This document shows positions 1-59,270 of a stretch of DNA of 64,000 bases, in pieces. The stretch comes from a phage, in the NCBI GenBank assembly GCA_024682255.1, contig GCA_024682255.1_4716.1. One strand, 5' to 3'. Below the pieces are notes generated by a model. That model had not been told where the DNA came from and searched no databases. It saw only the letters and a list, made by a program, of their open reading frames with translations. Every line of letters starts with the position of its first letter. Positions within the stretch are counted from its first letter, which is position 1. Position numbers and translations under genes: made by a program.

Positions 1-325
1 TCGCATCACCGATAAACGACAACGAAAATCGAACTTCTCATCATGGCCGTAGTCTTCATGCATGAAAACTTCATCCAGAACGAACTCAAGTTGCATGTCG
101 ACATCACGACCAGAGATATTCCGTTTGTACAAATACAGTTCAATCGTGTCGTAAAGCAACGTATGAATATCATAATTTCCGTTCGGTGAGAAATAAGGCA
201 ATCGCTCATCGAGCATCGTAAACAGATATTCGCTGTAGTTTAATAACGGGATGATGTACCGACGCCCTGTCTGTGGTGTGCGAATATGTATCGAAACCTG
301 ACTTGGGCGCGGAATAACCGACGGC

Positions 326-955
326 TTAGAATCGTCTCTCTGAAATTGCTCTAAAGATCGCAACAAAGGTGGCCGCATTGTAACTCTCCAACGCCCAATT
401 GTAAGGCCCTTCCAACATGTGTTCCCATACGTGAATAAACTCACTACCGAAGACAGGCTCCAGCGCCATGGTGAGATTCGTAAGTTCTGACGCGGCCGCA
501 TGGTAAGCATCAACATGTCTTTCCATTGACGGATCGTCTTCATTGAAAATACGTTCTGTGTCGCCAGCCCGTTCAATAAGTTCGGTAATGAGATCTGTCC
601 ATGTCTCGTGACACGTCATCATTTCCTGTTCTCGACTTAGTATGCCGATGTCTGCGTGGACGCTGGACTCGAACCGGTCTAAAAGGACCCGAAGAACGTG
701 CACCTTGTCGATGTATTTCACCGTTATCCAAGAAAGCGGTTGCCACCGACTCAGCATCCATCCGGTACTCGGGAACCCCAAACTCATATAGTACGGGTTG
801 CACCGGACCGAAGACGGAGCGGCGTTGTTTAAATCGCTCCTTAAGGGCAAGGCCTTGTTTAATATAAACGGGTTCATTGGCGAGTTGTTCCGCTTTTCGT
901 TTTGCGTGAGCCAATCGAAGTTCTTCCAATTGCCCAAGCCATTCAAATTGTTCAT
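326..955 (-). CDS. hypothetical protein; C-terminal ~100 aa look coding, N-terminal part overlaps 573-1550 in another frame so true start is uncertain
   Basis: ORF track; protein-like composition in C-terminal half; overlap with neighbouring ORF. Confidence 0.35.
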   Translation of the reverse strand: MNNLNGLGNWKNFDWLTQNEKRNNSPMNPFILNKALPLRSDLNNAAPSSVRCNPYYMSLGFPSTGWMLSRWQPLSWITVKYIDKVHVLRVLLDRFESSVHADIGILSREQEMMTCHETWTDLITELIERAGDTERIFNEDDPSMERHVDAYHAAASELTNLTMALEPVFGSEFIHVWEHMLEGPYNWALESYNAATFVAIFRAISERRF

Positions 956-1550
956 CTGTTAGCTCCTGGGGACGTTCAACAATCGCGCCAGACGGGCAGA
1001 TATTGATCGTAATGTTAATTGACGGCATCGCCATCACTCGAGGATTACTATTACGTACACGGACAACGTGTTCGGTTGCTGATTTACGATCGACGCAATA
1101 CTCTGTTTCTTGGAACTCAAATGCTTTTAACGGCGTTGGTTTTGTTTGACGTTTAGGAACGCGGCCAAGATCAACAATATAGGCATAATCGCACACACGT
1201 TCTATTCCGTAAATACGGTTATCCGACCAGTTCTTACCAAACAGCTTATTGTGATGATAAGACAGATATTCGGTTACCATACCCTGGACAACATCGAAGT
1301 CTTCTCGAAATTCAGGTTGGTACCAAATCGGGCCGAGAATATCTGCGAACGATTCATGACGATATCGAGGATCATGTCGAGTCCAGGTCATTCTCTGATT
1401 AAGATCGAAATCCACCAACAGCTCGGTTAATTGCAATTTTTCCTTCGGAGAAAGCTGGCGTTGATGATGCAAACTCAGACAATCGATAAGCGGTAATGAA
1501 ACCCACGATGCTAATGTGTACAAATCGATCCTGGCTAATCTCTTGGTCAT
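573..1550 (-). CDS. hypothetical protein (Arg-rich C-terminus may be out-of-frame read-through)
   Basis: 325-aa ORF, no recognisable motif. Confidence 0.45.
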   Translation of the reverse strand: MTKRLARIDLYTLASWVSLPLIDCLSLHHQRQLSPKEKLQLTELLVDFDLNQRMTWTRHDPRYRHESFADILGPIWYQPEFREDFDVVQGMVTEYLSYHHNKLFGKNWSDNRIYGIERVCDYAYIVDLGRVPKRQTKPTPLKAFEFQETEYCVDRKSATEHVVRVRNSNPRVMAMPSINITINICPSGAIVERPQELTDEQFEWLGQLEELRLAHAKRKAEQLANEPVYIKQGLALKERFKQRRSVFGPVQPVLYEFGVPEYRMDAESVATAFLDNGEIHRQGARSSGPFRPVRVQRPRRHRHTKSRTGNDDVSRDMDRSHYRTY

Positions 1551-1641
1551 ACTCTTTTCCTAAGTCCCCATTGTTTATACACACGATATCTGGGAATAGT
1601 TAAAATATACGGCGTAAAACGAAGCAGGAGAGTTTCTGACG

Positions 1642-1962
1642 TCATTTTCTCCCTCTTCGAATACCACCGATACCTCTTTCGTCTAAGACGTCCCAAGCAC
1701 GCTTTATTTCATCCTCCGTTGCTCTGGTATCTGGAGGGACAACCATAACACAGTCGTGGAATGGCCAATGTGCAGGTCTGGGGTTAGCGAACAAATCATC
1801 CCATTCAAATGTCCATTCTTTCTTTGAGCGATTGTAGTAGAGCGTAAGGTACGTGTTGGTATATGCTGGATAACCACGCATAACTTCAATATCCTTACGA
1901 TCTTGCCGTTCCTGATTCCAATCGTTAAACCGCTTTCTTATTTTCTCCCACCATTTTCCCAT
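1642..1962 (-). CDS. hypothetical protein
   Basis: 106-aa ORF; AGGAGA Shine-Dalgarno upstream of ATG; preceded by hairpin+TTTTATGCCG element. Confidence 0.5.
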   Translation of the reverse strand: MGKWWEKIRKRFNDWNQERQDRKDIEVMRGYPAYTNTYLTLYYNRSKKEWTFEWDDLFANPRPAHWPFHDCVMVVPPDTRATEDEIKRAWDVLDERGIGGIRRGRK

Positions 1963-1984
1963 GCTTTCTCCTACGCGGCATAAA

Positions 1985-2006
1985 AGCCTGCCCCGAAGGA
2001 CAGGCT
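1985..2006 (-). terminator. GC-rich hairpin (agcctg...caggct) followed on minus strand by TTTTATGCCG; same element as 62642-62665 in opposite orientation
   Basis: inverted repeat read directly; 28-nt identity to reverse complement of 62640-62668. Confidence 0.5.
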
Positions 2007-2015
2007 CGATAGAAC

Positions 2016-2216
2016 TTAACGACCATCCAATTTCAATGAAGGATGGTTGACGATATGTGCGTGTTTTGCTGGGTCATATAGCTGATATGGAAAATAGCCA
2101 TGCCATTGACGGCCTTGGCATTTCGTACACAAGAACTGACCAGCAGCTTGTCGATTCTCGTAAGCGAGTTCGGTACTATCAACATGACCGCAACGTTCGC
2201 AGATAAACAGCGACAT
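2016..2216 (-). CDS. small zinc-ribbon-like protein (two CxxC pairs)
   Basis: CERCGH ... CTKCQG cysteine pairs in 66-aa ORF. Confidence 0.5.
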   Translation of the reverse strand: MSLFICERCGHVDSTELAYENRQAAGQFLCTKCQGRQWHGYFPYQLYDPAKHAHIVNHPSLKLDGR

Positions 2217-2253
2217 AGCGCATCCCCATTCACTTGAACCTTTTGGTTCGGCA

Positions 2254-3234
2254 TTAGAAAAGCAAGAAACCGCTATTCTTCGCTTCCGCTACAGTTTCGT
2301 CACCAACTTTCGGTGCTTGTTGACGTGCGTTACGATGTTCGATGTAACGTTTCGCTTCGTCCGCGATCTGTTTGATAATACCCCCTAAACGATCGGTACT
2401 TAAAACAAACGACGTCGCTTCACGAATTGGGCTGCTTTCAGGCACAAAACCATCACAGCTGTAAATAGCGCTAACACCCATGACTTTGGTCGCGTCTTTC
2501 GGATAAAGCGTACAGAAAGCAATCGGGCTATCGTTCTCTTTCGTCCAATCGTATCCCATGAACGTATTCAGTTCGGTGATCGTTGGTTCCAAACCGGTAA
2601 CACGTGGATGGTTTAAGAAGTTTTCCAGGTCGGCGCTGTCAAGACGGCGGTTCTCGCCAGAAAACAGAACACAAAGCTGGCTGATAACAACCTGCACGTC
2701 CAGGTTGACATCCTGCTCCGATTTCCCATTTTCGCCATTCATGTGATAGCTAACAATCACTGGACGTTTCAACCCTTCTGCAGCAGCCATCAGTCCTTTG
2801 AAGGTGCGATCGGCGTTGATGGTTTGGCGTTCATCATCGAACGAGGCGACGATACAACACACCACACGTTCACCGCGTTCCAGCAGATTAGCAACCAACG
2901 CAGGACCGGCAACAGAACCTGAACCACCGCTCAAACTAAAGACCACGATATTAAATTTACCTGGTGTATGCTTATTGAGAATACCTGGGATTTGCGAGCA
3001 GATCAGTTCAGCGTTCTCGTCACGCTTCTTACCGGAACCGTCTAACTCACGACCAGCTGCATCTTTAAAGATGTAAATATGATCGTCGCCCAGTGTGCTA
3101 TCGCGTAGGTTAGCGCGGCTGGTATCAACATACGTCATGCTGTGTAATCCTTTCGCGACTTCGCCTTCAAATGCTGAGCCGATTTCGCCACCACAACCAC
3201 CAACAGCCCAAATATGTACTTGGTTCTCTTGCAT
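2254..3234 (-). CDS. phuZ: tubulin/FtsZ-superfamily GTPase, PhuZ-like phage tubulin
   Basis: N-terminal GGCGGEIG resembles tubulin T1 loop GQCGNQIG; SLSGGSGSVAG resembles tubulin signature GGGTGSG; ~326 aa as phage PhuZ; AGGAG SD. Confidence 0.65.
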   Translation of the reverse strand: MQENQVHIWAVGGCGGEIGSAFEGEVAKGLHSMTYVDTSRANLRDSTLGDDHIYIFKDAAGRELDGSGKKRDENAELICSQIPGILNKHTPGKFNIVVFSLSGGSGSVAGPALVANLLERGERVVCCIVASFDDERQTINADRTFKGLMAAAEGLKRPVIVSYHMNGENGKSEQDVNLDVQVVISQLCVLFSGENRRLDSADLENFLNHPRVTGLEPTITELNTFMGYDWTKENDSPIAFCTLYPKDATKVMGVSAIYSCDGFVPESSPIREATSFVLSTDRLGGIIKQIADEAKRYIEHRNARQQAPKVGDETVAEAKNSGFLLF

Positions 3235-3298
3235 GTGAACTCCTAACTTAATATGTATTTAACGCACAATGAATCTTTCTTTGCTAAAGGGGTGACCC

Positions 3299-4141
3299 AT
3301 GGGTGCTATTGACTACAGTGTAGATCGTATCTGTCGTACAATACCGGCAGATATCCTACAGTATTGCTATATCGATCGTTACGACTGGCGTAATCGCTAT
3401 CCTCGTTCCGTAGAAGACATCATTACCGATTGGGTAATCCGTAAACGGGTTATCGGCGACATCGATATCTACGGGGGACTACAAACCGTTATCCCCCTCG
3501 ATGATGCCGGTGTCACTATCGAAGAAGTCACCATTAACTGTTATGTTTTCCACATCCCGTTGGAAGCCACACAGGGACGTTATATCACGTCTGCATTATC
3601 CATTATTTCAGGGAGCGTGAACAACTACGGAATAAACTATAACGGGCAATGGGGTGCTTTCAACCAAACCCAGTTTCAACGTCAGCTTTGTGGGTGGAAC
3701 CCCGCAAGCAACACGTTACAGCAAGGGATGAACGCGTTCGGTCCCATGAACGTTCTTAGTACAGCCAACGTTGATATCATCGCCCCTAACACCATCATGG
3801 TGAACAACGTCACGCCTGTACAATTTCCCCTGAGTCTACGTTGTTTCCTTGCCCACGATCCGGAACTTACCAACCTCAGCATGGAGGTTTGGAACGACTT
3901 TTACAAACTCTGTTTATACGCCACACAAAGCGACATCTACAACAGAACCGTTATCCGTCTTGACAGAGGTGTTACAGCACAAGGACAAGAAGTCGGTGCA
4001 TTCAAGGAATACATCGATCGCTTTGCTGATGCTGAAAACACATATCAAGAATTCCTGAACGAAACGTGGGCGGGCGTTGCTGCCTGGAACGATCCACAAA
4101 CTAAACGTCGCGCTATTCGTTTGCAAACCGGTTACTTCTGA
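3299..4141 (+). CDS. hypothetical protein
   Basis: 280-aa ORF; followed by hairpin. Confidence 0.5.
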   Translation: MGAIDYSVDRICRTIPADILQYCYIDRYDWRNRYPRSVEDIITDWVIRKRVIGDIDIYGGLQTVIPLDDAGVTIEEVTINCYVFHIPLEATQGRYITSALSIISGSVNNYGINYNGQWGAFNQTQFQRQLCGWNPASNTLQQGMNAFGPMNVLSTANVDIIAPNTIMVNNVTPVQFPLSLRCFLAHDPELTNLSMEVWNDFYKLCLYATQSDIYNRTVIRLDRGVTAQGQEVGAFKEYIDRFADAENTYQEFLNETWAGVAAWNDPQTKRRAIRLQTGYF

Positions 4142-4668
4142 TTAACAACAGCTTCCTCCCTCGGTGTTTTTGAGGGAGGTATTTGCCGCTTGAACACTTT
4201 CAGCACGTTCGCAAATTCAGCAGCAATAATACAGGCCGAGGTTGATAGCTTATTGCTGAAAATGAGATCGTCCGGTAAACAATCGAACTGAATACCGTAT
4301 TGCGTCTTTGTCTCATCAACGATCAATGATGGTGTCGATCTTGTCTTCGCGATATCGGTGATATACAAACGTAAAAATAATTCACCGTCTTCGCTATCCA
4401 TAAAACGATAGGTGTTACCAGAAAACGCAACACATGGCGTAACGATAAATTGAACACGATCGTCGATCGGATGGATATTTAACCAACGTTCGATATCACT
4501 GCTACTCACATTCCGCATATTTACTACGGTAAAAGCAAATAGCGTATCGTGATGTTTGGAATAATGCAGCACATACGCCGCACCTTTCTTCCTGTGAATC
4601 CCTTCAATGTATTCTATTGTCGTATAGCCGGATTTATATAGCTTTACTTGCGGTTTCTCACTCATCAT
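4132..4668 (-). CDS. hypothetical protein (start moved to internal ATG overlapping upstream stop, TGATG)
   Basis: ORF track 4132-4749; ATGATGA start/stop overlap with upstream gene. Confidence 0.45.
   Translation of the reverse strand: MMSEKPQVKLYKSGYTTIEYIEGIHRKKGAAYVLHYSKHHDTLFAFTVVNMRNVSSSDIERWLNIHPIDDRVQFIVTPCVAFSGNTYRFMDSEDGELFLRLYITDIAKTRSTPSLIVDETKTQYGIQFDCLPDDLIFSNKLSTSACIIAAEFANVLKVFKRQIPPSKTPREEAVVNQK
4155..4179 (+). terminator. hairpin cctccctc/gagggagg followed by TATTTGCCG
   Basis: inverted repeat directly after stop of 3299-4141. Confidence 0.45.
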
Positions 4669-4964
4669 AACAACCCTTCCCGTTTCATCGCAGCACGCAT
4701 ACTTGCGTAAAGCGCATTCTTCATTGCACCTGGACGCAACGGATAACAAATCTCATATCGACGTCCTTGTTTTACAGCAATTTTCCTTCCATTCAGAAAC
4801 AACGTGCCATTATCCAGCAACAACTCACCTTGTAGTATCATGAGTCCTGCTTTAACATGACGTCCTTCTTCTTTCGTTAAGACCTTATAGCCATGTTTAT
4901 CCAATAACCACAATTCGTAGATACCACGCGCAGCCTTCGGCATTACTTTCTTCTTCGTCGTCAT
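4665..4964 (-). CDS. hypothetical protein
   Basis: 99-aa ORF in operon-like array. Confidence 0.45.
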   Translation of the reverse strand: MTTKKKVMPKAARGIYELWLLDKHGYKVLTKEEGRHVKAGLMILQGELLLDNGTLFLNGRKIAVKQGRRYEICYPLRPGAMKNALYASMRAAMKREGLL

Positions 4965-26049: not shown

Positions 26050-26760
26050 TCACCCCCTCAGAATCGCTTCTGTTTCGCTGATCGTATCCGCAGGATAAAC
26101 CAAACTACTATCGATTGCGTTATTCACGTAACCACCCATTAAGTTGGTGATGGTGTTTGTACCGCTATCGATAATGTTTCGTAATCCGATGTCGATGGCT
26201 TTTAACGTACTGCGTTCTTCATCCGAAAGCAAACGCCACGCTCGACGACGATCGTTGGGGTCACGTGTGGTGATAGACGCCAGAACAGAATAGATGCTGC
26301 TGTCTGCGTTCAATTTAACGCCAGCCAATTTCGCTGACGTATAGAGCAGCTGATATTTTTCTTTCTCAGTGTACCACCATGGCACCTTACCGAGCGTATA
26401 GATCTCGTTATACATCAGCCATGGGAAAGAGTTTCGCATCACGACATCGGTCGACACCAACACCGTGTCGCCGGGAAGAAACACAAATTCATAAAACGGC
26501 TGACCATCCATGGTAATTTCACGGATGTCAGACGGGTCGATATGGAGCTGGGTCAATGCGTGGCTGACACCATACTGTCCATCAGGAAGAATAATCGGGC
26601 AGCACGCACAAACCCGGTTCTCACTCCCGATGATAGATAAACCCAATCCCTCGTAACGGACGGGTGTCAGAATCGAACACCCGCCACGAGTAACAACAGA
26701 TTTATCTTCTTGTATGTCCCAGTCCGCAAGCACCGCAGCACCGTTGCGGACAAGCGCCAT
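26050..26760 (-). CDS. hypothetical protein
   Basis: 236-aa ORF, tightly abutting neighbours. Confidence 0.5.
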   Translation of the reverse strand: MALVRNGAAVLADWDIQEDKSVVTRGGCSILTPVRYEGLGLSIIGSENRVCACCPIILPDGQYGVSHALTQLHIDPSDIREITMDGQPFYEFVFLPGDTVLVSTDVVMRNSFPWLMYNEIYTLGKVPWWYTEKEKYQLLYTSAKLAGVKLNADSSIYSVLASITTRDPNDRRRAWRLLSDEERSTLKAIDIGLRNIIDSGTNTITNLMGGYVNNAIDSSLVYPADTISETEAILRG

Positions 26761-28618: not shown

Positions 28619-29728
28619 TTATTTAGCGTCGTTAAAGTAAATATCAACAGCTCGTTCCGTTGCGTAGAGGAGACCAAGATTCACAGTCCCAACCACTTCC
28701 GGTGAACCGATGATACGGTTAGCGATACTGGTGCCACTGAAGATAGCATCAAGGGTGTGCCCGTCTTCGGTTTTGTTCACACCATGACCCACGGAAGAGA
28801 CAACGGATTTCGCTTGAGCTGCGAAGGTACCTTTATCACCCATCCCCGCACCAAGGTCGTAACGCATGAAAATACGGATGGCGATCTGGTTCTCGCCTAA
28901 CGGATTACCGTCTATTCTCACGTTACTGTTATTGATACGCCCCGTTGTTGCTTCGTTGAGTTTCAGTTCCTTAACGCGTTTAGCTCGTGCTTTATCCGCT
29001 TCACCGACGAGCGCTGCCATGGTTTCACTCATATCCTCAATCTGAGCGCGGTACAGTACATCGATCTGTACAACTTCACCATGAACGTCAGCACGTGGGT
29101 TATACTGACTCATACGACGTAATGCTTCAACGGCTTCCTGACTCTCATCACTCAGATCGGTTGCAATCGGTTCTTCCAGTGTTGCAAGGATCGTTCGAGG
29201 TTCAACGTGATCGCCGATTTTCACGAGACCGCGAATGTTGAGATGGGCGTCAACGATAAGCGTACGGCTCTTAATCGATGGTGTTACGAGACGATCGGCA
29301 AGATTGTCGAAGATATACGAACTGTCCTCGTGGGTCTCTGGAATATCCAGAATACCGACAAGAGACAGCACGCCTGCGCGCCAAACAACCTGACCTGGGT
29401 TCCACCAGTCGCGTTTAAAATAAAGACGATGGAAAACCACCACATCCTGATCCTTAACGCGATCCCCGACTTTATAATCGGTAATGAGATCGTGAGGATA
29501 ATACTTACCTGGTCCTTTCCCGATTATCGTACCGAGCTGGAAAACCTCTTCCCCTAACTCTGGATCGTCGTACTGTATCGTCAGCGCAGTTTTGGTGACC
29601 TTCTTGACAACACCATCGCCTTGGGCGGCAGCTGCGAAGAGTTTACCAACACGATGCGCGATAACAGTCTCACCGCCGGTGCGCCACGGTTGTACATCGT
29701 AACCTTCAGCAGCAATCATGCGGTTGTG
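28619..29728 (-). CDS. RNA polymerase beta-like subunit, exon 2 (track ORF 28619-29749 begins at an in-intron TTG that is not a real start)
   Basis: HNRMIAAEG matches beta ANRALMGAN; GDKGTFAAQAKSVVS matches beta GDKMAGRHGNKGVIS; frame open upstream into intron. Confidence 0.75.
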   Translation of the reverse strand, partial: HNRMIAAEGYDVQPWRTGGETVIAHRVGKLFAAAAQGDGVVKKVTKTALTIQYDDPELGEEVFQLGTIIGKGPGKYYPHDLITDYKVGDRVKDQDVVVFHRLYFKRDWWNPGQVVWRAGVLSLVGILDIPETHEDSSYIFDNLADRLVTPSIKSRTLIVDAHLNIRGLVKIGDHVEPRTILATLEEPIATDLSDESQEAVEALRRMSQYNPRADVHGEVVQIDVLYRAQIEDMSETMAALVGEADKARAKRVKELKLNEATTGRINNSNVRIDGNPLGENQIAIRIFMRYDLGAGMGDKGTFAAQAKSVVSSVGHGVNKTEDGHTLDAIFSGTSIANRIIGSPEVVGTVNLGLLYATERAVDIYFNDAK

Positions 29729-30264
29729 CTGTATACCTATAAATACCAATCTCTTGGGCGAATTTAGTTCTTATTCAACATAATCGTACTATTACCAGAA
29801 TAAGACTGAGATTAGATTGTTCAGATAAGGTCGTTGCTTGAAACGATCGTTTCAGCGCTCATCTTATCCCGGAGGCGACGATAGGCACATCACCTCCCGC
29901 TTGCGCTCTCACGCAAGAGCAGACTATATCACATCTCGTTTCAAACGGTGCTTCTTCAGCACCTCAACGAGAGTTCACTTCTTCCCAGCGCATCCAGCGC
30001 CATTCTCTTATCCAAGGAGAATGCCTCACTCGAGGGGTACAGGGGGATGAATCCCTTAGTCGTTGAACCTTTACCTTAGAACGCTTCACAGCGATCCTTA
30101 GGTACTTGGCTGCGGATTGTCCTTAAGCTATTATCTGTTTTTATACCATACCGTCTTTCTTTTCAGAATCCGTTTTGGTCGATAACAGCGATGGATGTCT
30201 TCGCAATTCAGTGAATCTCATCTACATGTCGCCACATAGACGGACCCTGCTATTAAAAGCGTTA
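29729..30264 (-). ncRNA. group I self-splicing intron (no ORF) in RNAP beta-like gene
   Basis: minus-strand P (AAUUGCGAAGA, 30198-30208), Q (AAUCCGCAGC, 30109-30118), R (GGUUCAACGACUAAGGGAUU, 30050-30069), S (GAUAUAGUC, 29922-29930) in canonical order; exon ends in U, intron ends in G. Confidence 0.8.
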
Positions 30265-33200
30265 ATCATCTCTATCAGCAGCAGGTACTGCAAGTGCTGA
30301 TGTACTCATTATTGACGAGCTACCATCCGTTTTCTCGTCGTAGGGTTTCGTTTCACCGTATACAGACACAATGTTTGCGTTAGGTGCAAGGTAAGCAGAG
30401 ATACCTACGTCCCCACTATCCTTCGTACCTTCGGATACAACACCAATGTCCGACTTGTCGTATTCACGATCGCGTGCGCGTCGAAGCGATGTCTTTGAAC
30501 GACCCCCAATACCGGTCATCGTCGCTTCTTCACCCTGCTTGATATCCAGCATCGGGTTGGTTTCATCGATCACGATGGAAGCACTGTCGTCGAGAATTTG
30601 GTTCCAGACACTTACCGGACTGATTGAGATTTTCTGGCGATTTCCTTGACTGCTGTTCTCATTCTGACGAATAGCGCCAACCAGATCCTTATACACCAAT
30701 TCAGCGAACTTATCGTACGTTTTAAAACGTTGGTAGTTCACATCGTTCGTGTTAGGAGCCCAATCATCCAGAAGCAATTCAACAGCACGCAGTAACAACA
30801 TGGCGAAATCGGTAGGTTCTCCCATGTTCTGCAGCAACATACGGCTTACCGGATCAACGAAAAGACGCTCCATGAGTTCAAGTTCGCGTAAATGACGAAC
30901 CTTAAGTCCGGCACCATCGACAACGTTAAAATAGATATCTCGATTGTCAAAAGCGCCGCGAGCGTAACCAATGTAGTTACGGTATTCGTTAAACCCACCC
31001 AGCAACAACGTCGTCATGCGGTCGTCTTTACTGAAGATCAAACTTTCGTCGTCAAAGCTCACCGCGAATTCATCGGGTGCTAGACCCATACGAGAACCGC
31101 GAGGTACCGTACGATAGTTTGCTTTAAGATGTTCTAATAACGGGGTGAGTCCGCCCAGATAACTTAGAACAACACCGACCGGAATACGTACACCCATGAA
31201 TTCAAGATCGGCAGCTTCGATCGGCATCTTGGCCGCATTGATGCCGAAGAAATCAGGGAACGTCCCTACAGGTGTTGGTGTTTGTCCTGACTGACAGATA
31301 TAGAGCTGATTGCGTTTATCGATTGCTAAGAATTCACCCAGCGTGTTACGCGCAAACGTCAGGAGCCCTTCGGCTAACTGTTCGTTGAACCGATCTTCCC
31401 CAATGAACTCCGGTAGCGTTTTTATATCGAGACGTATATCCCAATCAGCAAATTGGATTTGGGTATAATTGCGCGCAAGCACAGCGAAGTAGTACGGAAC
31501 TTTGACAGCTGGATCAAAGACGTTACCACGTTTTAACGTGGTTAAGGGTGAGGACTTATCGTAATACATCGCTGTAAGTTGACGTGTTAGCCAACGACCC
31601 GCATTATTAACGACGCGCTCTGAACGTTTAACAAACACCTTACCGTAGGCGGTACTCAATGCAACTTCGGATGACGATACCTTTCTAATAGGTTTATCAA
31701 CACGTTGTTTACGCATCCGGTATTTGATGCCGTTAACGACATAAATGCCGTCCTTACGAACCTTCGGCAACATCACCGGGAACGTGGTCGGGACACCGCC
31801 TACAGGAGCCAGTTTAATCGTGATGACTTGATAATCCCCCATCACGTCAACGACATCTTCAACTTTATATCCCGTGACAGGGTAACCTGCCTGCTGTACC
31901 GCAACAACGGCAGCTGCGATGTCCTTTTGCATTACGTGTTCGACGTAATGTTTATCCCACACCGCGAGCGTCGATTTACATAAGCTCTTGTCGACGATAA
32001 CATCCGCTTCCGGCATAACCTTTGCAGGCGCTAATTTCGCGGCTTTTGGTTTAACTTCAACATACTCGGCAAGTGTTAATCCAGAACCGTCGGGTGCTTC
32101 GATTTCGTGAATGGCATCGGCGTTACGCATCGCTGCTTTATATTGGACACCGCTTAACTGACCCGCATCGGCCAGATCGCTCGCGCGTACCAACACCGCA
32201 TCCGATAACGACTGAATATATTCACCATGTGTTTTTGGTAACGTTGTCGCATCAAAGACATCAACCTTTTCTTCTTCGGTATCGTCGGTAACGACTTCGA
32301 AGAGATCGTCGGTAATGTCCTGATCTTCATCGGGTTGGAAATCCGGCTGTACTTCTACCCCGGGTACTTCACGGACATCTTCGAACGAGCGTTCTACAAT
32401 GGCGTTCCACGCATCAGCGTCATCGTCTTCATCCGAACCACCGACCAACTCCGCTTCTAACTCATCGGGATCAAGAACGGTAGCCAGATCCTCACCGTTA
32501 GGAAGCACGACGTCGCGATCATCGTACTCCGCATCCGGGCTGTCTGCAAGAATATCCCGCTCTTGACGAAGAACCTGTTCCTCTTCTTGTTTCTGTTCTT
32601 CTTCATTCGCGCTCTGCGACCACAGACGTGTTACCGCCATCATCCAACGACGCTGGAAGGTTTCGAGTGTCGTTTTATCGAGTTCTTCCCCTTCCTTTAC
32701 AAGTCCGGTACGCCATTCTTCCAGCAAGCCGAGATTCAGCGTAAAGAAGTACACACCGTCTGTAAATACAACGTTAAGCTTATCCAGCGTGGCCCTGTCT
32801 AACGAAGCCATCGTGCTGTTCTCACGATCGGTTCCCAGCCAGCGGAAGAAGTCAAAGAACGACAGCTCCTCCGGTGTGGCGAAATTCATGAGGTTGTTAC
32901 GGGTCGGTGCCTGTTGCGTGGTACGCATCAACGAAATCTTCGGCAATGTTGACGGTATACGGAACAACAAAAAGTGTTGACGATCGCTTTGCTGTGCGAT
33001 TTCGTTGGCTTTCGACCAAATTGTTTTACGTACGTTGAACCATTCATCATACCAACGGGTGAGCGTTGGACGATAAATGTACATGTGGTTAAGATGCGCG
33101 TAGTTAGCAACGATCTGAGCGTTGATGTTTTTCTCTACCGTGCTTAGATCGGTAACCAAACGAAAACGACGATGTGATGCACGATAATCCAATTTCGCTC

Positions 33201-33471
33201 GTGGGAGTTGGAATCGTTGATCGCGTCGAGGTGCGCCCTGTTTGGTTGCGAGATCATCAGCAAACGAAATCCATAGTTGAGCACTTTCTTTACTCAGCAT
33301 GTATTCGTTTTCTGGAGGACCTATCAACGATGGATCCGTTGCGGTGTAATGATAGACAGCATAACGCGGCAGCTGCAATAGCTGCACTAAACGTAATCTC
33401 GGTGATAGTAGCTCTTGGTAGCGTCTGACACCGAACTGTCGGTAGTAATCAAGGTATTTAAGTTTTGCCAT
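30265..33471 (-). CDS. RNA polymerase beta-like subunit, exon 1 (includes ~450-500 aa non-RNAP N-terminal extension)
   Basis: MTGIGGRSK...SGDVGISAYLAPNAN matches beta ALGPGGLTRERAG...PEGPNIGLINSLSVYAQTN; C-terminal VPAADRDD matches beta IPFLEHDD. Confidence 0.8.
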
Positions 33472-33654: not shown

Positions 33655-35731
33655 CCTTTTCTTCGCCTCAGGTCGCTACGCTGAGACCGCCTGCGTGGAT
33701 ACGTACATCACAGGCTGCTTGCACTTTCATGCAAGAGGAGACTATATCAAACCGTCAGCTTCACCTTCTCGATCGTATCGAGAATGCGGTGCTGAAGTAT
33801 TCTTCAGCAGCACCTGCTACGGTAACCTACACTTCGAAGACGCTTGTCCTCTACAGGGTGGTAAATCCCTTAGTCGTTGAACCTGCGTTGTTTCACATTC
33901 TTGTTTGCAAGAATGCCGTATTGCTACGCAACAACCAGGCTGCTGATTGCCCATTATCACGCACCTTAGCACCGCTTACGCGGCTTTTCTTTCAGCCTAA
34001 GCCTCCGTGGGAGGTAATGTCTGATTAAATCAGACATCGCCAGGAGGTAGTGCATCTCAACTGTTGTTTCCGCCTTTCGGCACCTCATGGGTTGTTGAGC
34101 TTTAGGGGTTCCCAGCAATTCGTAGGTTTTTCAAGCACTCCCTTTCGGGAATACCGGACCATTACCCTTTAGCTAATTTATTTAAGTATCTGAAATCCCA
34201 CTTATCTTTGCGTCTATTTTCGCACTTAATAGCTTGGTTCTTTATTCTCCAAGCCACCTTTGTTTTAGGTAATTGGCTGTAATTGGCCGCTGACGCAGTA
34301 CCTAAAACAACGGTTACGGTACCATCGGGTTTAGTAATCTCTACAGCGCGATAATGCTTACGTAACACATTACGCCAATATTCACGGCGTTCTGGCTCAG
34401 CATACTCAAGCATATAACCGTTGGTATCGACCAGACCGTAACACTCGTTTAAACGAGAGGTAGCGGCCGGTCTACTAATACCGATTGCTTTAGCCGCGTC
34501 AACCACGGTTTTATACGGGGTTTCATTACCGTCTCTATCTACAACCACAATAAAATCTGGACGCGAATCGAGCAGCTGCTGTCTTCGTTCAAGGGCTTGT
34601 TGATGAAGCACCTTGTTAACATGTTCGAACCCGTAACCTTCTGGACCGCGCCACCCTGGATTGTTATTCGCTCGATAAAGTACCGTCGCTGATTTCACTC
34701 CAGTCTGACGTGACGCCTCGTTTGCACTATGAACAACCGTGGTAGAGCCGTCAGGGTGATATATCCGTATCTGGTTCATTATACCGGAACCAACAAAATT
34801 ACCATCAGCTGATTTAATATCCGGCCATGGTTGAGGATTATCCTTGAATTTAACCACCCAACGACTGTTAAACAATTTGACTTTCCGGGCATGTTTACCC
34901 ATTGTCGTATCCGTAACACCAGCTACAACAGAGGCTTGCGTGATACTCAGGTACTCAGTAACGGTATCGTCCCATGTATCCCAGAGCAGAACCGGTTTAT
35001 TGTCGTCGCGTAAACCGTGTTCGATAGCATGCAGGACATTACGACTTCTGGTTGCCCATTCAAGGTTGTCAAGAGAATAGTTCCACTTATCGGCATCAAG
35101 ATGGTTAACGTCCATCCTATCGACATCGGCTGGATACTCTCTCCACGCCAGCATTAGACAACGGTGTAATACCTTGCTACCGGCCTTCTGGCGACAATCA
35201 TGTTTCAAGCAGACAGTAACGTAACGGTTCGTTACGAAACACGGGCGACAAATGCTCCCGTCTTTTCTGTCCCTGATATCACCTACTTCGTTTATTACAT
35301 ATCTCGTCAGTCCTGGAATAACGCGATAGCCAGGATACTTAGCGATTTCATAAGCGGGCTCGAACCGATAGGATAAATTATCAACATCCCAGTTAGATTC
35401 GTCACCATCAACAAACATCGCTTTGACGTATTTCTGTGTTTCAATATCAACCAGGATGTTTTTGTGTGCGATACAAATCAATGCTGGGATATTGAATTCG
35501 CGACCGGCTAAGATAACCGTGTCGCCATCTCTCGGTACCTCGACGTGGGTATCGCGATACCGCAAGTTTCCATAGCCGTCTATTTCAATCCAGCTTAGAA
35601 ACGGAATAGATATAAATTCTTTTTCAGATACTCGCCATTTAAACATATAAACCCCTGTATAACCTTACTGTCACACTAAGAGGTTTATCTGTAAATTCTT
35701 ACAGAATGGCGTAATTTTACTAAAAGGGCCG
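33655..35731 (-). mobile_element. group I intron carrying an HNH homing endonuclease gene, inserted in beta-prime-like gene
   Basis: minus-strand P (AAUUGCUGGGAA, 34109-34120), Q (AAUCAGCAGCC, 33939-33948), R (33864-33883), S (33740-33748); HNH ORF upstream of core; 5-prime boundary by homology. Confidence 0.7.
34162..35646 (-). CDS. HNH homing endonuclease (HNH_3-type with NUMOD/IENR-like HTH modules), intron-encoded
   Basis: motif NHLDADKWNYSLDNLEWATRSRNVLHA; C-terminal AAKAIGISRPAATSRLN HTH-like repeats. Confidence 0.85.
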   Translation of the reverse strand: MFKWRVSEKEFISIPFLSWIEIDGYGNLRYRDTHVEVPRDGDTVILAGREFNIPALICIAHKNILVDIETQKYVKAMFVDGDESNWDVDNLSYRFEPAYEIAKYPGYRVIPGLTRYVINEVGDIRDRKDGSICRPCFVTNRYVTVCLKHDCRQKAGSKVLHRCLMLAWREYPADVDRMDVNHLDADKWNYSLDNLEWATRSRNVLHAIEHGLRDDNKPVLLWDTWDDTVTEYLSITQASVVAGVTDTTMGKHARKVKLFNSRWVVKFKDNPQPWPDIKSADGNFVGSGIMNQIRIYHPDGSTTVVHSANEASRQTGVKSATVLYRANNNPGWRGPEGYGFEHVNKVLHQQALERRQQLLDSRPDFIVVVDRDGNETPYKTVVDAAKAIGISRPAATSRLNECYGLVDTNGYMLEYAEPERREYWRNVLRKHYRAVEITKPDGTVTVVLGTASAANYSQLPKTKVAWRIKNQAIKCENRRKDKWDFRYLNKLAKG

Positions 35732-37240
35732 ATCACCGCCTAAACCGGCGAGGTATGGCGCAGGAACAATAGTCGTTTCTACGAACGAAGCATTAGGTAA
35801 CCAGTCGGGGTATTCCCATGCGATAAATCGTTCATCCGTTATTGGTTCCCAGTTACTATCCAGTTCGGTTTTCGGTTTTGCAGCGACGGTTGTACGCGCG
35901 TAACAGGTTAACGGGATAACGGATTGCATACCCGATACCGGATAACGTGTTACCATCGCAGCCAGGTTATTCCAGTACTTATATCCGGCGATATAGATAA
36001 GCTCGGTGTAAGTAATGGGGTGAACATCCGCACCAGGTTTATTCAACATCTCTGGGGGTAATTCACTCATACCACGGAATAACCGAAACGAATCGTTGTT
36101 CACATAGACGAGGCAAAGATAACGTCCATTGACCATGATAGGTTCATTACGCACACCAGGATCGCTTAAGGTGTTCAGTAAACGTTCGATACCGTCCCAG
36201 GTTGTAAAGTCATCGATGGTGTCTGGATCAAGCGTGACACGTTCACGTTCCATCGTTTCGGTATCGATAAGTTCAACTTCTGTAACATCACGGACAAATA
36301 TTTCCTGCAAAATCCCCGTACGTAACGCATGTTGCGTTACAGGGAGAGCAGCTTTACTCATCTGGTATAACCCTAACTGAACCGCGGTACAGGAAGGCTG
36401 GTTAGGCGACCCTAGTACCTCCGTTGTGGGGTTAATTGCCGAAATAACGTTACGGGTTGAGTTCCAAACGCGACGTGAACCGAACTTGCCTTGGAAGATC
36501 CCTTTCTTACCTTGGAACATATCCAACAACAAAGCGTAGATATCGTTAAATGTTCTCTGTAAGCTCCAGCGCTGGCCGTCGTAAACGGGATCAGAATAAT
36601 CTTTTAATCCATCAGGGACGGTGTTAGAAATTGCAAGGAAACGACGATACAACTCTGTGATTTCTTGCTCGCTTTCATACCCGCCTTCTTTTACTTCTAT
36701 TTCACGTAAGCCCGCAGGTAAAACCAGTAAGTGACGAGTCATCGCTTTGAACATGTTCTCTTCGACAACTTTAATTCGTAGCTCTCGTTGAGCTGAACCT
36801 GTTGAAACGAACTTGATATCCGCGACGTGTTGTGCAAAGAACCCATATCCTGTTTGTCCTGTTAACGCATCAGACGCAACGAAGTCGCGTTGTTCAGGAT
36901 CCCACCGAGCGTACGCCTTCCCCGACATGATATCGCCATAGAGGTGTTTTAGTCGAATGAGGCGATCGTAAATGACGGGATGCAGGATTTCAACCTTACA
37001 TTCAATCACCGCAAATCGACGGTCTCGATCTTCGCTACCCGCACTACCAAAGATGGTGTAAGAATAGAAACCATCATCGTGGAAATTACCGGTGCTTGGG
37101 TCACGGATGCTCATGCTCGTGATCTTGGGGAGAAAACGTAACTGCTGTTTATCGAGGTGTAAAATACTAATGTTAAACGGCTCTCTGACTTTAGCCATGG
37201 AGACACTCCTCTTTACCACCACCGGCTGCGGCGGTATCAT
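35732..37240 (-). CDS. RNA polymerase beta-prime-like N-terminal subunit, exon 1 (likely true start ATG at 37198; track frame continues to stop at 35720 inside intron)
   Basis: DGFYSYTIFGS ~ beta-prime DGLFCARIFGP; LLVLPAGLREIEVKEGG ~ [30 protein letters not shown] ~ NRAPTLHRLG; exon ends LAGLGGD before FDGD of exon 2. Confidence 0.75.
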
Positions 37241-37350: not shown

Positions 37351-40300
37351 GTGAAGTTACGCTTCAACATTATCAATGCCGAAGGTAAACTTCGTGCATC
37401 ACGTTCCAACGTAACATGGGAACGTATCGAACTGGAGGTATACATGGTAGATAAAACCCGTGTTGAGGGTGATGATAATTGGGATAACTGGGATGAAGAC
37501 TTCTCCCTGGATCTCGATTTCAACGAACCCAAAGACGATCGTAAACCGATAACACGCTTTGCGGTAGGCGCGGTTAAAGGTGCCGCTGAGGATCTTACTT
37601 CCTACGAAAGAATGAAGGAGATCGCCAGAAACGCGTTGCCTAAGGGCTACAGCGACGGTATGGATCTTATCGATTCCGCCGTCGGATCCACGAAGGAACT
37701 ATACAATGAAGCCGTTCGTGACGTTCTTCCTAAGGTCCAAAGCTCAAAACGGTTAGCCGCACAACTAACCAAGAAATACCGTGCGAGCATGCCCGATTTC
37801 TCAAAGAAAATTCTCGAGCAATGGGAGCGAGAAGCCAAGGAAGAAGACGAACGTAAACAAGCTGAAGAAACCCTTCGTCAACGCATGGCGAGCGCTGGGG
37901 ACGATGAGATCGCCCGCAAGGTTGCCGAGGCATTAGGTGAATCAGCAAACCAAAGCGCGGATCAGTTCGCTGAACAGCAAGCAAAAGAAAGTATCCGTGA
38001 CGATATCGCTGACAAACGGTACGCTGTAACCAACAAACAAATGAGTGCGATGCAAGAAGGCGTCGCCAAGATGGTTGGTTTCAACAATGAATTCGCTGCA
38101 CGCTACATGCGTAAAAGCCTGGAACTGAAATATCGTTCCTTAGCGATTCAACGTGCGAGTTTTGATCAGCATAAAAAGTTAGCCGAAGTCTATATCGGTT
38201 TATTACAAAACATCCAGAAGAATACGGCTTTACCTGATGCGGCTAAAGCGAAAATGTCGGAAGAATTCCGTCGTAGCGCATACCAACGCTTCTTTGGTAA
38301 TGCGTTAGATGCGATGGGTTCTTTCGAGAACCGTTTCTTTGCCGATGTTAAGAAGAACCTTGCCACCAACGCATTAGGTGCTTTAAAAGGCGTCGTATCT
38401 GGCGCAAACGATGCGTTATACGGTTTAAACGAAGCGCGTGACTCGATGTCCATGATGGACGGGATGGGGTCAGAAGGCGATATTAAGGAAATGCAAGGAA
38501 AGATGTTGGGTCAGTTCATTGGCTCAACTGTCGCCCCATGGATGGCTAATAAAGGCAGGATGGCGTTACGCGATTTAGCAAAACGTCACCCCAATGCTAA
38601 ATTCGCTAGCGCGTTAAAAGCCGTGGATCAAGGTGGTGAGGCTGCCGCTTACACGACGCGTAATCTCGGTAAACTGCTCCAGGAAGATATTCGTAAAAAC
38701 GAATTCAATCTTAGCGATCCGTTTTACAAGCAATTAATACGTGGCGCAGGGCGTTGGGCGTTCAACATGGACAGCGGACGTAACTTCCGTGTGATGAACG
38801 ACACCGCTGAAACACTGGCGGAGCAAACGTCTTTCGACGGTTTAACTTACCGCAGCATCAACGAGGTTATTCCTGGCTTTCTTGCACGCATTCTGAAAAG
38901 CAGTGAAGGTATCCGCACCGGAAACAGCGATCCTGACTACGAGGTCTATGACGGCATCAGCGGGCAATTCGTGTCTCAGCGCACGCGTGAACAAAGCGTC
39001 AACGACACGCTGTTTAACAAACGTTCGTTTGGTTATTACGCAAGCCGTTTCAATGAGGTCATCTCGGTCATCGATCCTGATAAGCAATTATCGGAAAAAG
39101 CCAGAAAGGCGCTGGCTAAGCAGTTGGCACGAGATAGCGACGCAAATATCGCATTCGACCCGGCCCGTTTTACGGATGAAAGCAACTTCGATCGTAGTAT
39201 TGACCGCGACGCTATTAAGGAACTTTCCACGTACTTTCGTGACCGTTACGGTATTCGTGATGATGTCAACGATAAGGGCGAACGTCATCAGGTCATTGGA
39301 AACCGCGGGCAATATTACACGGAACGTAACCGAGCTGATCTTCGCTACGGAAATCTGAAATCGTTACAGCCGGATATCCAGCGTAACCTTAACCTACTGA
39401 AACGTACTGGCGACGTCCAATATCTGGAACGTATCGGTATTGTAACGAGAAATAGCGACGGAAGTTACTCGGTTAATCACGATCGGTATTTCTCTGAAAT
39501 CGATCGGTACATCGACCGACCGGAGTACGCTGAACGTAGTGATGTTAATACGCGATTAACCGCTCAGGAAACAAGAGCGCTGGCGCTAGGTTATCGTGAT
39601 GCAAAACCATCAGCTGGTGACGTCCAAAATGCGGGTCTGCCGAACATCGATCGTAAGGCTGTTGGCGCAGTAACCGTTGATGAAAACATCGGCTACGATA
39701 AATGGTGGAACGATACAGGTGTTATCACCACATCGCTTGAAGAACAGAATCGAGCATGGCAAGAGCTTTATCTCGAAGCGTTGTCTGAAGCATCCGAACA
39801 ACGTGTTGAAATGCTTACGTTACTGAAAGCCATTTCTGAGAAAGACTGGTCTAATAACGTTTCGCTGGATGGTGTAGATGTACCTGAAGGTGCGGCACCC
39901 ATTTCATTTATCGATCGTGCCAAACAAAAACTCGGTACACGCAACCTCTTTAAAGGTGGTCGTAATCTTCTCTGGAAAGGAATTAAAAATACCGCACGTT
40001 TGGGTGTTAAAGGCGCGCGCTGGGGTGCAGAACGCACGTTGGGTAGTTTGGTAAATTCTGGCCGACGCATTATCGATTTCAACCGCTTCGTGTTCGGCGC
40101 ATTATCCAAGGTTGATCAGGTTCCGTTTGACATTTACGTTAAAGGGGAATCCCAACCACGCATATTGGCGGCCAAACTTCGTCAGGGGTTATACTTCGAC
40201 GAAGCGACAGGAAAAGCCGTAAAACGGATGAAGGATATCAAAGGCCCACTCGTTGATGTGGATGGAAATATCGTAATCAGCAACGAGGATATCGAGAAAG

Positions 40301-50690: not shown

Positions 50691-51365
50691 TTAGCCCTCA
50701 TCAAGGTTATTCTGGAGATGCATCGCGGTGAGGATAACACCAACCGCCGAAACCGATTTTGCCTTGCTGTCTTCAGGGAGCTGCTCCAAGCTTACGGTAC
50801 CTGTTTCTAACAGCATACGGTTCATCGCGTTGAACTTCTTATCGTCGCCACCACGAGCCTGCATCAACTCTCGGTTCACGTTCGGCATCGACCGTCCTAA
50901 CGTCGCCTGCATTTCCGGCTGGCTCCAAGTGGAACCTTTACTATCACCCGTCGGCTGATTGGTGAGCTGGTCCTTGGTGTTGTTGTTTTTCGGAATCGAT
51001 ATTTTAGCACTCAACGTTTCGGCTTGTCGGCGGTTTGGAATCAGGTACAATCGGGTTGGGCGGTCACGAAGCACCAACTGTCCTGTTTTCTGATCGGTAA
51101 GATAAATGCGCTGGAAGAAAGGGAAACCGTATTTCTTACCGACTTCCAACGCCCGTTTTATCGTCACCTCGTTTTTGTTCATGTTGGGTACCCAGATGGG
51201 TAGAATCTCTTTCTTATCCCGGCATAAACGCATATAGGCATCAAACGTCTCATCATCGATTTCGGCAAAACGTTTTTTGTAAATAGCGTAAGTTGGGCTC
51301 GATTCACCCACCAGGTCTTTGATATACCCAAGAATGAATTTTTCTGCTGCAGCGCGGTTGGACAT
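50691..51365 (-). CDS. hypothetical protein
   Basis: 224-aa ORF. Confidence 0.5.
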   Translation of the reverse strand: MSNRAAAEKFILGYIKDLVGESSPTYAIYKKRFAEIDDETFDAYMRLCRDKKEILPIWVPNMNKNEVTIKRALEVGKKYGFPFFQRIYLTDQKTGQLVLRDRPTRLYLIPNRRQAETLSAKISIPKNNNTKDQLTNQPTGDSKGSTWSQPEMQATLGRSMPNVNRELMQARGGDDKKFNAMNRMLLETGTVSLEQLPEDSKAKSVSAVGVILTAMHLQNNLDEG

Positions 51366-59179: not shown

Positions 59180-59211
59180 CCCTCCTCCTTCCCTGTTGGG
59201 TTGGAGGAGGG
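59180..59211 (+). terminator. hairpin ccctcctcc/ggaggaggg followed by TTATGCCG
   Basis: inverted repeat after stop of 58541-59173. Confidence 0.5.
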
Positions 59212-59220
59212 TTATGCCGT

Positions 59221-59270
59221 CAAGCAAAAAAAAAAAATGATAGTCACAGGCTCTCCAATGAAGGAGAGCC
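59221..59270 (-). terminator. canonical intrinsic terminator for minus strand: hairpin ggctctcc/ggagagcc followed by U12 tract
   Basis: inverted repeat 59249-59270 and A12 run at 59226-59237 on plus strand. Confidence 0.6.

Follow-up and report, generated by a model that had tools for sequence, protein, structure and literature searches.

A PhuZ-family tubulin gene in a close relative of the nucleus-forming jumbo phage Goslar

An ATG-initiated open reading frame (ORF) of 326 amino acids exactly fills positions 2254 to 3234, on the minus strand, of the 64,000-nucleotide stretch of phage DNA analysed here (hereafter, the window). The ORF encodes a tubulin of the PhuZ family, orthologous to gp234 of Escherichia phage vB_EcoM_Goslar, and is preceded at a short distance by a Shine-Dalgarno sequence (Table 1). 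Directly downstream lies a small zinc-ribbon-like ORF, followed by a strong hairpin that resembles an intrinsic terminator. This hairpin was not in the list returned by a simple terminator scan and is the counterpart of a terminator annotated at positions 180588-180607 of the Goslar record. The presence of the zinc-ribbon-like ORF and of the strong hairpin terminator after PhuZ points to a short transcription unit, in which both genes are probably co-transcribed. On the other side, PhuZ is flanked by a divergent DUF7484 gene, which adjoins PhuZ in every Goslarvirus genome that we examined (Goslar and the contigs L007-L012). A scan for sigma-70 promoters around PhuZ returned 5 matches versus 4.7 expected from shuffled sequence, and such a background level was to be expected since the phage is transcribed by its own RNA polymerases (RNAPs).

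Table 1. Positions of the PhuZ gene, its sequence motifs and other annotated features within the 64-kb window
Feature	Position	Strand	Basis or remark
PhuZ (phage tubulin) coding sequence, 326 aa	2254..3234	-	Orthologue of Goslar gp234 (RefSeq numbering); phrog_4733 and PDB identity
Shine-Dalgarno AGGAG	3240..3244	-	5 nt ahead of the PhuZ ATG; read from sequence
T1 (phosphate-binding) loop AVGGCGGEIG, aa 10-19	3178..3207	-	Within the Pfam Tubulin match, at the start of PF00091
T4 tubulin-signature-like loop SLSGGSGSVAG, aa 100-110	2905..2937	-	Read from sequence and alignment
T7 loop RRLDSADLENF, aa 196-206, with D199 and D202	2617..2649	-	Read from sequence and alignment
Codon 229, GAT (Asp); GAA (Glu) in Goslar	2548..2550	-	Sole amino-acid difference from Goslar PhuZ
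66-aa CxxC...CxxC zinc-ribbon-like ORF (Goslar gp235 homologue)	2016..2216	-	Directly downstream of PhuZ; Pfam Zn_Ribbon matches weak, sub-threshold
Intrinsic-terminator-like hairpin AGCCTGTCC-TTCG-GGGCAGGCT, then T-rich tail	1981..2006	-	Read from sequence; closes the PhuZ unit
DUF7484 gene, 280 aa, divergent from PhuZ	3299..4141	+	PF24302 E 1.4e-87; phrog_3179
Goslar gp210 homologue (listed virion RNAP subunit)	26050..26760	-	Coordinate mapping and collinearity only
Virion RNAP fragment gene, Goslar gp207 homologue, two exons	28619..33471	-	phrog_3148 on ORFs 30262..33471 and 28619..29749
Extra group I intron, 506 nt	about 29759-30264	-	Rfam Intron_gpI 56.3 bits; insertion mapped against Goslar
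Virion RNAP fragment gene, Goslar gp205 homologue	35720..37240	-	phrog_2986 E 3.4e-161
Virion RNAP fragment gene, Goslar gp196 homologue	50691..51365	-	phrog_3233 E 1.1e-65

The three loops through which tubulin/FtsZ proteins handle the nucleotide (T1, T4 and T7) are intact in the window PhuZ. When the protein was aligned with the PhuZ proteins of Goslar, phiKZ and 201phi2-1, the T1 glycines G12, G13 and G15 and the T4 residues S100, G103, S105, G106, S107 and G110 were invariant. The T4 segment SGGSGSV (aa 102-108) is a relaxed form of the GGGTGSG-like signature, and the same columns hold GGGSGS in the 201phi2-1 protein (PhuZ201) and GGASGS in that of phiKZ. The original prediction, made from the sequence alone, had singled out the T1 loop and the signature-like T4 motif; both are present, lie in invariant columns and are not coincidental. 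The T7 loop, which was absent from that prediction, is a third diagnostic element. Its residues D199 and D202 align with D187/D190 of PhuZ201 and D201/D204 of phiKZ PhuZ and are likewise invariant.

Profile and structure searches placed the protein in the same family. Residues 1-323 matched positions 1-321 of the 323 in the PHROG profile phrog_4733, 'tubulin PhuZ', with an E-value of 2.9e-68. The Pfam Tubulin profile (PF00091) matched aa 9-151 with an E-value of 8.3e-07 but a score of 29.9 bits, below its gathering score of 33 bits, and no NCBIfam model matched. Among PDB chains, 9pm9_C (also 9pmk), deposited as 'Tubulin/FtsZ GTPase domain-containing protein', was 99.7% identical (E 4.3e-220) and differed at residue 229 alone. 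It was followed by the PhuZ proteins of phiKZ (3zbp/3zbq, E 7.8e-29) and 201phi2-1 (3r4v/3rb8/3j5v, E about 6.5e-15), and no TubZ, FtsZ or tubulin chain appeared among the sequence matches up to an E-value of 1. Similarly, tblastn detected a homologue in 173 of 50,697 phage records. Goslar was the top match (99.7%) and all others were below 60% identity; the matches listed were all jumbo-phage records, many of them annotated as tubulin or PhuZ. The full-length profile match and the 99.7% identity to both Goslar PhuZ and a solved structure bear out the proposal that the gene encodes a PhuZ-type tubulin. A single-sequence AlphaFold2 model was too poor for fold comparison (mean pLDDT 38.8, pTM 0.40), and the tubulin/FtsZ fold is predicted from the identity to the solved chains. 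As regards the literature on 9pm9 and 9pmk, we found only a benchmarking preprint in which 9pm9 serves as a cryo-EM test case; the Avs5 paper (PMC12931631) has no relation to the structure.

The DNA of the whole window is 95-97% identical to positions 178603-237303 of the Goslar record, running on into 1-4859, so that the window comes from a close Goslar relative whose sequence was opened elsewhere. Goslar has been shown experimentally to be a nucleus-forming jumbo phage (PMC9891218), and its genus, Goslarvirus, has lately grown from 1 to 237 genomes, which make up 38 species and were retrieved from assemblies of bacterial isolates (PMC12768965). In addition, six contigs of ~237 kb with an identical PhuZ protein showed 96.0-97.4% DNA identity to the window over 13 kb. 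Neither complete E. coli genomes nor PLSDB plasmids yielded a match when searched for closer relatives.

The virion RNAP of Goslar has five subunits, gp78, gp196, gp205, gp207 and gp210, while PhuZ is gp234 and chimallin gp246 (2026 Goslar virion study, RefSeq numbering). Four of the five subunit genes map into the window (gp196, gp205, gp207 and gp210), three of them with matches to RNAP profiles (phrog_2986, phrog_3148 and phrog_3233) and that of gp210 by its mapped position. Chimallin is not in the 64-kb window, where tblastn gave nothing better than E 2.3. In the Goslar record, the gene for this 631-aa protein occupies positions 171003-172898, ~5.7 kb past the left edge of the window and ~8 kb downstream of PhuZ, and is followed by an RNAP beta' fragment gene (gp247), a group I intron and an HNH gene. 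In all six long contigs with the identical PhuZ protein, a gene for a 631-aa chimallin (Chimallin_Phikzvirus, PF25677) lay ~8 kb downstream of PhuZ, beyond a divergent DNA polymerase gene, and 616-624 of the 631 chimallin residues were identical to those of Goslar. The order PhuZ, DNA polymerase, chimallin, RNAP beta' fragment and HNH is common to Goslar and phiKZ (gp039, gp050, gp054, gp055 and gp056), and 201phi2-1 keeps it as far as the RNAP fragment (gp59, gp83, gp105 and gp107).

From PhuZ and split RNAP genes, the original prediction had deduced a chimallivirus-type genome with a nuclear shell protein and further RNAP fragments elsewhere in the genome. The split RNAP genes are there, and the genome type agrees with the DNA identity to nucleus-forming Goslar. 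The expectation of a shell protein is borne out by the chimallin gene of Goslar and of the six contigs, and further RNAP fragments are provided in Goslar by gp247, beside chimallin, and by gp78, at another genome location. The deduction was sound in this case, with neither marker strictly diagnostic alone.

The RNAP region also differs from Goslar by an intron. On the minus strand of the window, Rfam detected two group I introns, one at 33718-34180, which is annotated in Goslar as well, and one at 29900-30266, which is not. The latter falls within 506 nt of inserted sequence that interrupt the gp207 homologue after its codon 1070, while Goslar gp207 is uninterrupted. The phrog_3148 profile divides accordingly between the two ORFs (positions 2-1050 and 1055-1420), and removal of the 506 nt yields a frame of 1448 amino acids, 1431 of which are identical to Goslar gp207. 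With its boundaries set at 30264..29759, the intron is preceded by a U and ends in a G, as is canonical, and no ORF of note was found inside it. A Logan contig from SRR13870916 matched 9.2 kb of the RNAP region, intron included, at 100% identity. Of three IMG/VR contigs carrying a Goslarvirus PhuZ 38-mer, two also carried an intron 24-mer at the same gene site, and one of these IMG/VR introns holds a 403-aa ORF with a NUMOD1 domain and sub-threshold matches to the I-TevI DNA-binding and HNH_3 domains. Birkholz et al. reportedly linked, in 2024, intron endonucleases in chimallivirus RNAP genes to competition among co-infecting phages. In our view, this intron polymorphism deserves more attention than PhuZ itself.

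The function of PhuZ has been studied in Goslar itself. Fluorescence microscopy showed GFP-PhuZ filaments that enclose the chimallin shell and extend, in a vortex-like array, as far as the membrane (PMC9891218). The dominant-negative, hydrolysis-deficient mutant PhuZ(D202A) polymerised at a much lower expression level; with it, there was no vortex and rotating nuclei went down to 29%, while nucleus position and growth were unaffected (PMC9891218). The Goslar nucleus was not enriched at midcell (PMC9891218), and later papers restate that Goslar PhuZ turns the nucleus without centring it (PMC10299810, PMC12908238). The protein has also been detected in Goslar preparations (2026 Goslar virion study). 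By analogy, the 99.7%-identical window allele would be expected to form filaments, build a vortex and rotate the nucleus. It may also have a part in capsid trafficking, a role shown for Pseudomonas phages only (PMC9891218). In the mechanism that we propose, the N-terminal domain would bind GTP via the T1 and T4 loops and the subunits would stack head to tail, with D199 and D202 in the T7 loop of one subunit completing the GTPase site of the next. GTP hydrolysis would then give rise to dynamic filaments. Arranged like a vortex around the chimallin-enclosed nucleus, these would press on the cell envelope, and the resulting torque would rotate the nucleus. This rotation would probably help to distribute capsids across the shell surface for DNA packaging.

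Another way to read the gene is on the model of phiKZ, PhiPA3 and 201phi2-1, in which PhuZ forms a bipolar spindle and brings the nucleus to midcell. Centring by PhuZ is an established function in Pseudomonas phages (PMC9891218, PMC10299810), and the window protein belongs to the same family and shares the T1, T4 and T7 residues. However, Goslar PhuZ, one residue apart, acts without midcell enrichment and its D202A mutant altered rotation only (PMC9891218, PMC10299810, PMC12908238). Furthermore, the window protein is only 28% and 22% identical to the PhuZ proteins of phiKZ and 201phi2-1, and three of the four residues that make up two assembly salt bridges of PhuZ201 are not kept. A centring spindle is therefore very unlikely here. 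The earlier statement that tubulins of this kind position the phage nucleus in phiKZ-like phages holds for the phiKZ-like Pseudomonas phages, but not for Goslar PhuZ, which rotates the nucleus without centring it. Hence, the textbook function of the family should not be carried over to the Goslarvirus lineage, in which rotation without centring has been shown.

We also considered a DNA-segregation tubulin of the TubZ type, which would partition an extrachromosomal phage or plasmid genome through the adaptor TubR and the centromere tubC, as known from Bacillus plasmids and the Clostridium phage c-st. In favour of it, the window protein is a phage tubulin of similar size, its gene has a small zinc-ribbon ORF directly downstream, and the origin of Goslarvirus genomes from bacterial isolate assemblies (PMC12768965) hints at persistence. 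In contrast, all significant PDB matches were PhuZ, with no TubZ chain up to an E-value of 1. Positions 1500-4300 contained no tandem iterons or centromere-like repeats, and the neighbouring ORFs matched no DNA-binding adaptor family among the PHROG and Pfam profiles. The genome, moreover, is of a chimallin-encoding type whose nucleus-forming phage is lytic in experiments (PMC9891218). A TubZ-type partition system was thus rejected on the absent TubZ similarity, iterons and adaptor gene, and we consider it highly improbable.

The nucleotide variation of the gene agrees with a functional PhuZ. The window gene showed 97.9% DNA identity to the Goslar gene; of the 21 nucleotides that differ, 20 are silent and one causes a conservative replacement (D229 here, E229 in Goslar). 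Across eight alleles (window, Goslar and the six contigs) we counted 55 variable sites, 53 at the third codon position and 54 silent; about 22% of the possible single-base changes in the gene are silent, and a crude binomial calculation, with sites taken as independent, gave a chance P of about 4e-34. Residue 229 was the sole variable residue, Asp in seven of the eight alleles and Glu in Goslar alone. The window PhuZ is under strong purifying selection, and the protein is nearly invariant across diverged Goslarviruses. Its exact sequence occurs in 849 indexed blocks of a public assembly collection, the ~237-238 kb contigs that bear it coming from metagenomes and NCBI bacterial assemblies. A decaying or non-functional tubulin remnant, for which one could invoke that PhuZ is accessory (66.2% of chimallin-encoding phages have it, and it is deletable from phiKZ; PMC10299810), was refuted by this substitution pattern and, given also the intact ORF with its strong ribosome-binding site, the intact catalytic motifs, the many exact copies and the protein found in Goslar preparations, has practically no probability left.

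Altogether, we put at about 0.95 the probability that the ORF encodes PhuZ, a tubulin/FtsZ-superfamily GTPase of a nucleus-forming Goslarvirus (Chimalliviridae) jumbo phage, and presumably acts by the mechanism proposed above. The gene is already known, being that of the characterised and structurally solved Goslar PhuZ in a close relative. It carries little weight as a discovery, as in vivo work on Goslar PhuZ dates back to 2021-22 and cryo-EM entries of it have been deposited. The value of the case lies in calibration: a reader of the raw sequence recognised the tubulin from two loop motifs and was right on the genome type and on a shell-protein gene that it had not seen. The window is now anchored to a well-annotated reference genome.

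Among the known systems, the closest is Goslar PhuZ (gp234, YP_009820885.1; PDB 9pm9/9pmk), which shares 325 of 326 residues with the window protein, is of equal length, has the same neighbours in the same orientation and contains D202. The differences are E229 in place of D229, the 20 silent codon changes and, at the genome level, a DNA identity of 95-97% and the extra RNAP-gene intron, which Goslar lacks. The PhuZ protein of phiKZ (gp039; 3zbp/3zbq) is of the same family (the match covers aa 5-292) and shares the T1, T4 and T7 residues and the gene order, but at 28% identity; its bipolar spindle centres the nucleus, whereas the Goslar type forms a vortex with no centring (PMC9891218, PMC10299810). 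PhuZ201 (gp59; 3r4v, 3rb8, 3j5v), at 22% identity, has the same catalytic aspartates, D187 and D190, and ends, like the window protein, in a short hydrophobic C-terminus (GMVV and GFLLF, respectively). However, PhuZ201 has 7 acidic residues among its last 30 and the window PhuZ only 4, and its tail residues D303, D305 and D311 align with T314, A316 and G322.

PhuZ201 forms three-stranded filaments, and its pairs R217:D305 and E225:R290, reported as essential for self-assembly, are kept in phiKZ (PMC10299810), where they correspond to R230:D316 and D238:R301. In the window protein these positions are Y228:A316 and S236:R301, so that one of the four residues, the last Arg, is kept; both this and the tail comparison call for caution, since the alignment comprises four sequences at 22-28% identity. 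The absence of three of the four salt-bridge residues of PhuZ201 and phiKZ, together with the far less acidic C-terminal tail, leads us to propose, tentatively and as the less probable outcome, that the filament lattice of Goslarvirus PhuZ might differ from the canonical three-stranded one. The polymorphic residue 229 adjoins Y228, the replacement of a salt-bridge arginine, and for this reason may lie at a filament interface. The PhuZ protein of Erwinia phage RAY, another enterobacterial chimallivirus, offers a parallel: by its description, it also lacks the PhuZ201-type salt-bridge residues (PMC10299810). Its filaments have been tentatively interpreted as five-stranded tubes, and the RAY nucleus rarely rotates (PMC10299810).

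We found that the gene at 28619-33471, which encodes the homologue of the virion RNA polymerase subunit gp207 of Escherichia phage vB_EcoM_Goslar (hereafter Goslar), was interrupted after codon 1070 by an intron of 506 nt. When these 506 nt were taken out, an ORF of 1448 aa was regained, with 1431 of its 1448 residues identical to Goslar gp207. No endonuclease ORF was present within the intron of the window. A Logan contig from SRR13870916 was 100% identical to the window across 9.2 kb, intron included. In addition, two out of three IMG/VR Goslarvirus contigs carried an intron at the same site of the gene. In one of them (L014), the same-site intron contained an ORF of 403 aa with a NUMOD1 domain, together with sub-threshold matches to the I-TevI DNA-binding and HNH_3 domains.

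Features of the window, with the support or context of each
Feature	Position	Strand	Remarks
Zinc-ribbon-like ORF, 66 aa, two CxxC pairs	2016-2216	minus	between PhuZ and the terminator
DUF7484 gene	3299-4141	plus	PF24302, E 1.4e-87; phrog_3179 (unknown function)
Group I intron, 506 nt	29759-30264	minus	Rfam Intron_gpI, 56.3 bits
Exon sequence flanking the 506-nt intron	29765-29800 and 30265-30296		
Second group I intron	33718-34180	minus	57.9 bits; annotated in Goslar too
HNH endonuclease ORF, 494 aa	34162-35646	minus	
2252-aa ORF, counterpart of Goslar gp204	37351-44109	plus	

The exon sequences beside the insertion were themselves divergent. BLAST left 41 nt of exon around the insertion point (208354-208394 of the Goslar record) without alignment, and in a MAFFT alignment of the window against Goslar the substitutions appeared dense in the flanks next to the insertion. 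At the protein level, 9 out of 12 residues were kept in a 12-residue segment around the intron junction. This flank divergence might result from co-conversion or, alternatively, from alleles with and without the intron differing in their homing site.

Regarding the surroundings of the phage tubulin gene phuZ, the DUF7484 gene was divergent from it and directly adjoined it both in Goslar and in each of the six Goslarvirus contigs. According to the Goslar annotation, the adjacent Ea357_206 and Ea357_207 of Erwinia phage Ea35-70 are homologues of the PhuZ and DUF7484 genes. On the other side, the 66-aa ORF gave weak, sub-threshold matches to Pfam Zn_Ribbon_TF and Elf1, and matched no PHROG family; two of the six contigs had no gene call for it. 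In the public assembly collection, 849 indexed blocks contained exactly the PhuZ protein of the window, and 155 of these blocks had contigs of 0.2-1 Mb. The carriers included the NCBI bacterial isolate assemblies GCA_024608925.1 and GCA_010391865.1. This spread, isolate assemblies included, agrees with a published account of lytic Goslarviruses as common in assemblies of bacterial genomes (PMC12768965).

The window also covered the point at which the Goslar record was opened. Because its 51 nt at 59187-59237 matched that record twice, at the last 51 nt (237253-237303) and again at the first 51 nt, and the sequence ran through the record-end junction without a break, the Goslar ends look like an arbitrary opening point plus a short redundancy, a pattern compatible with circular permutation or terminal redundancy of the genome. 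The only part of the window in which the GC and AT skews were clearly positive, at about 38-44 kb, coincided with the 2252-aa ORF. In the Goslar annotation, the counterpart of this ORF is a tail fiber protein that contains a lysozyme-type domain.

The second group I intron was located between the homologues of the virion RNA polymerase subunits gp205 and gp207, directly after the 494-aa HNH ORF. Its full Rfam core lay downstream of this ORF, and the start codon of gp207 followed approximately 246 nt farther downstream. No part of the window had diverged more from Goslar than the HNH ORF region, with 88.6% identity at 34333-35148 and no alignment at 35149-35309. The two phages also differed in the gp207 gene itself, which is continuous and intron-free in Goslar, whereas its homologue in the window is split by a group I intron.
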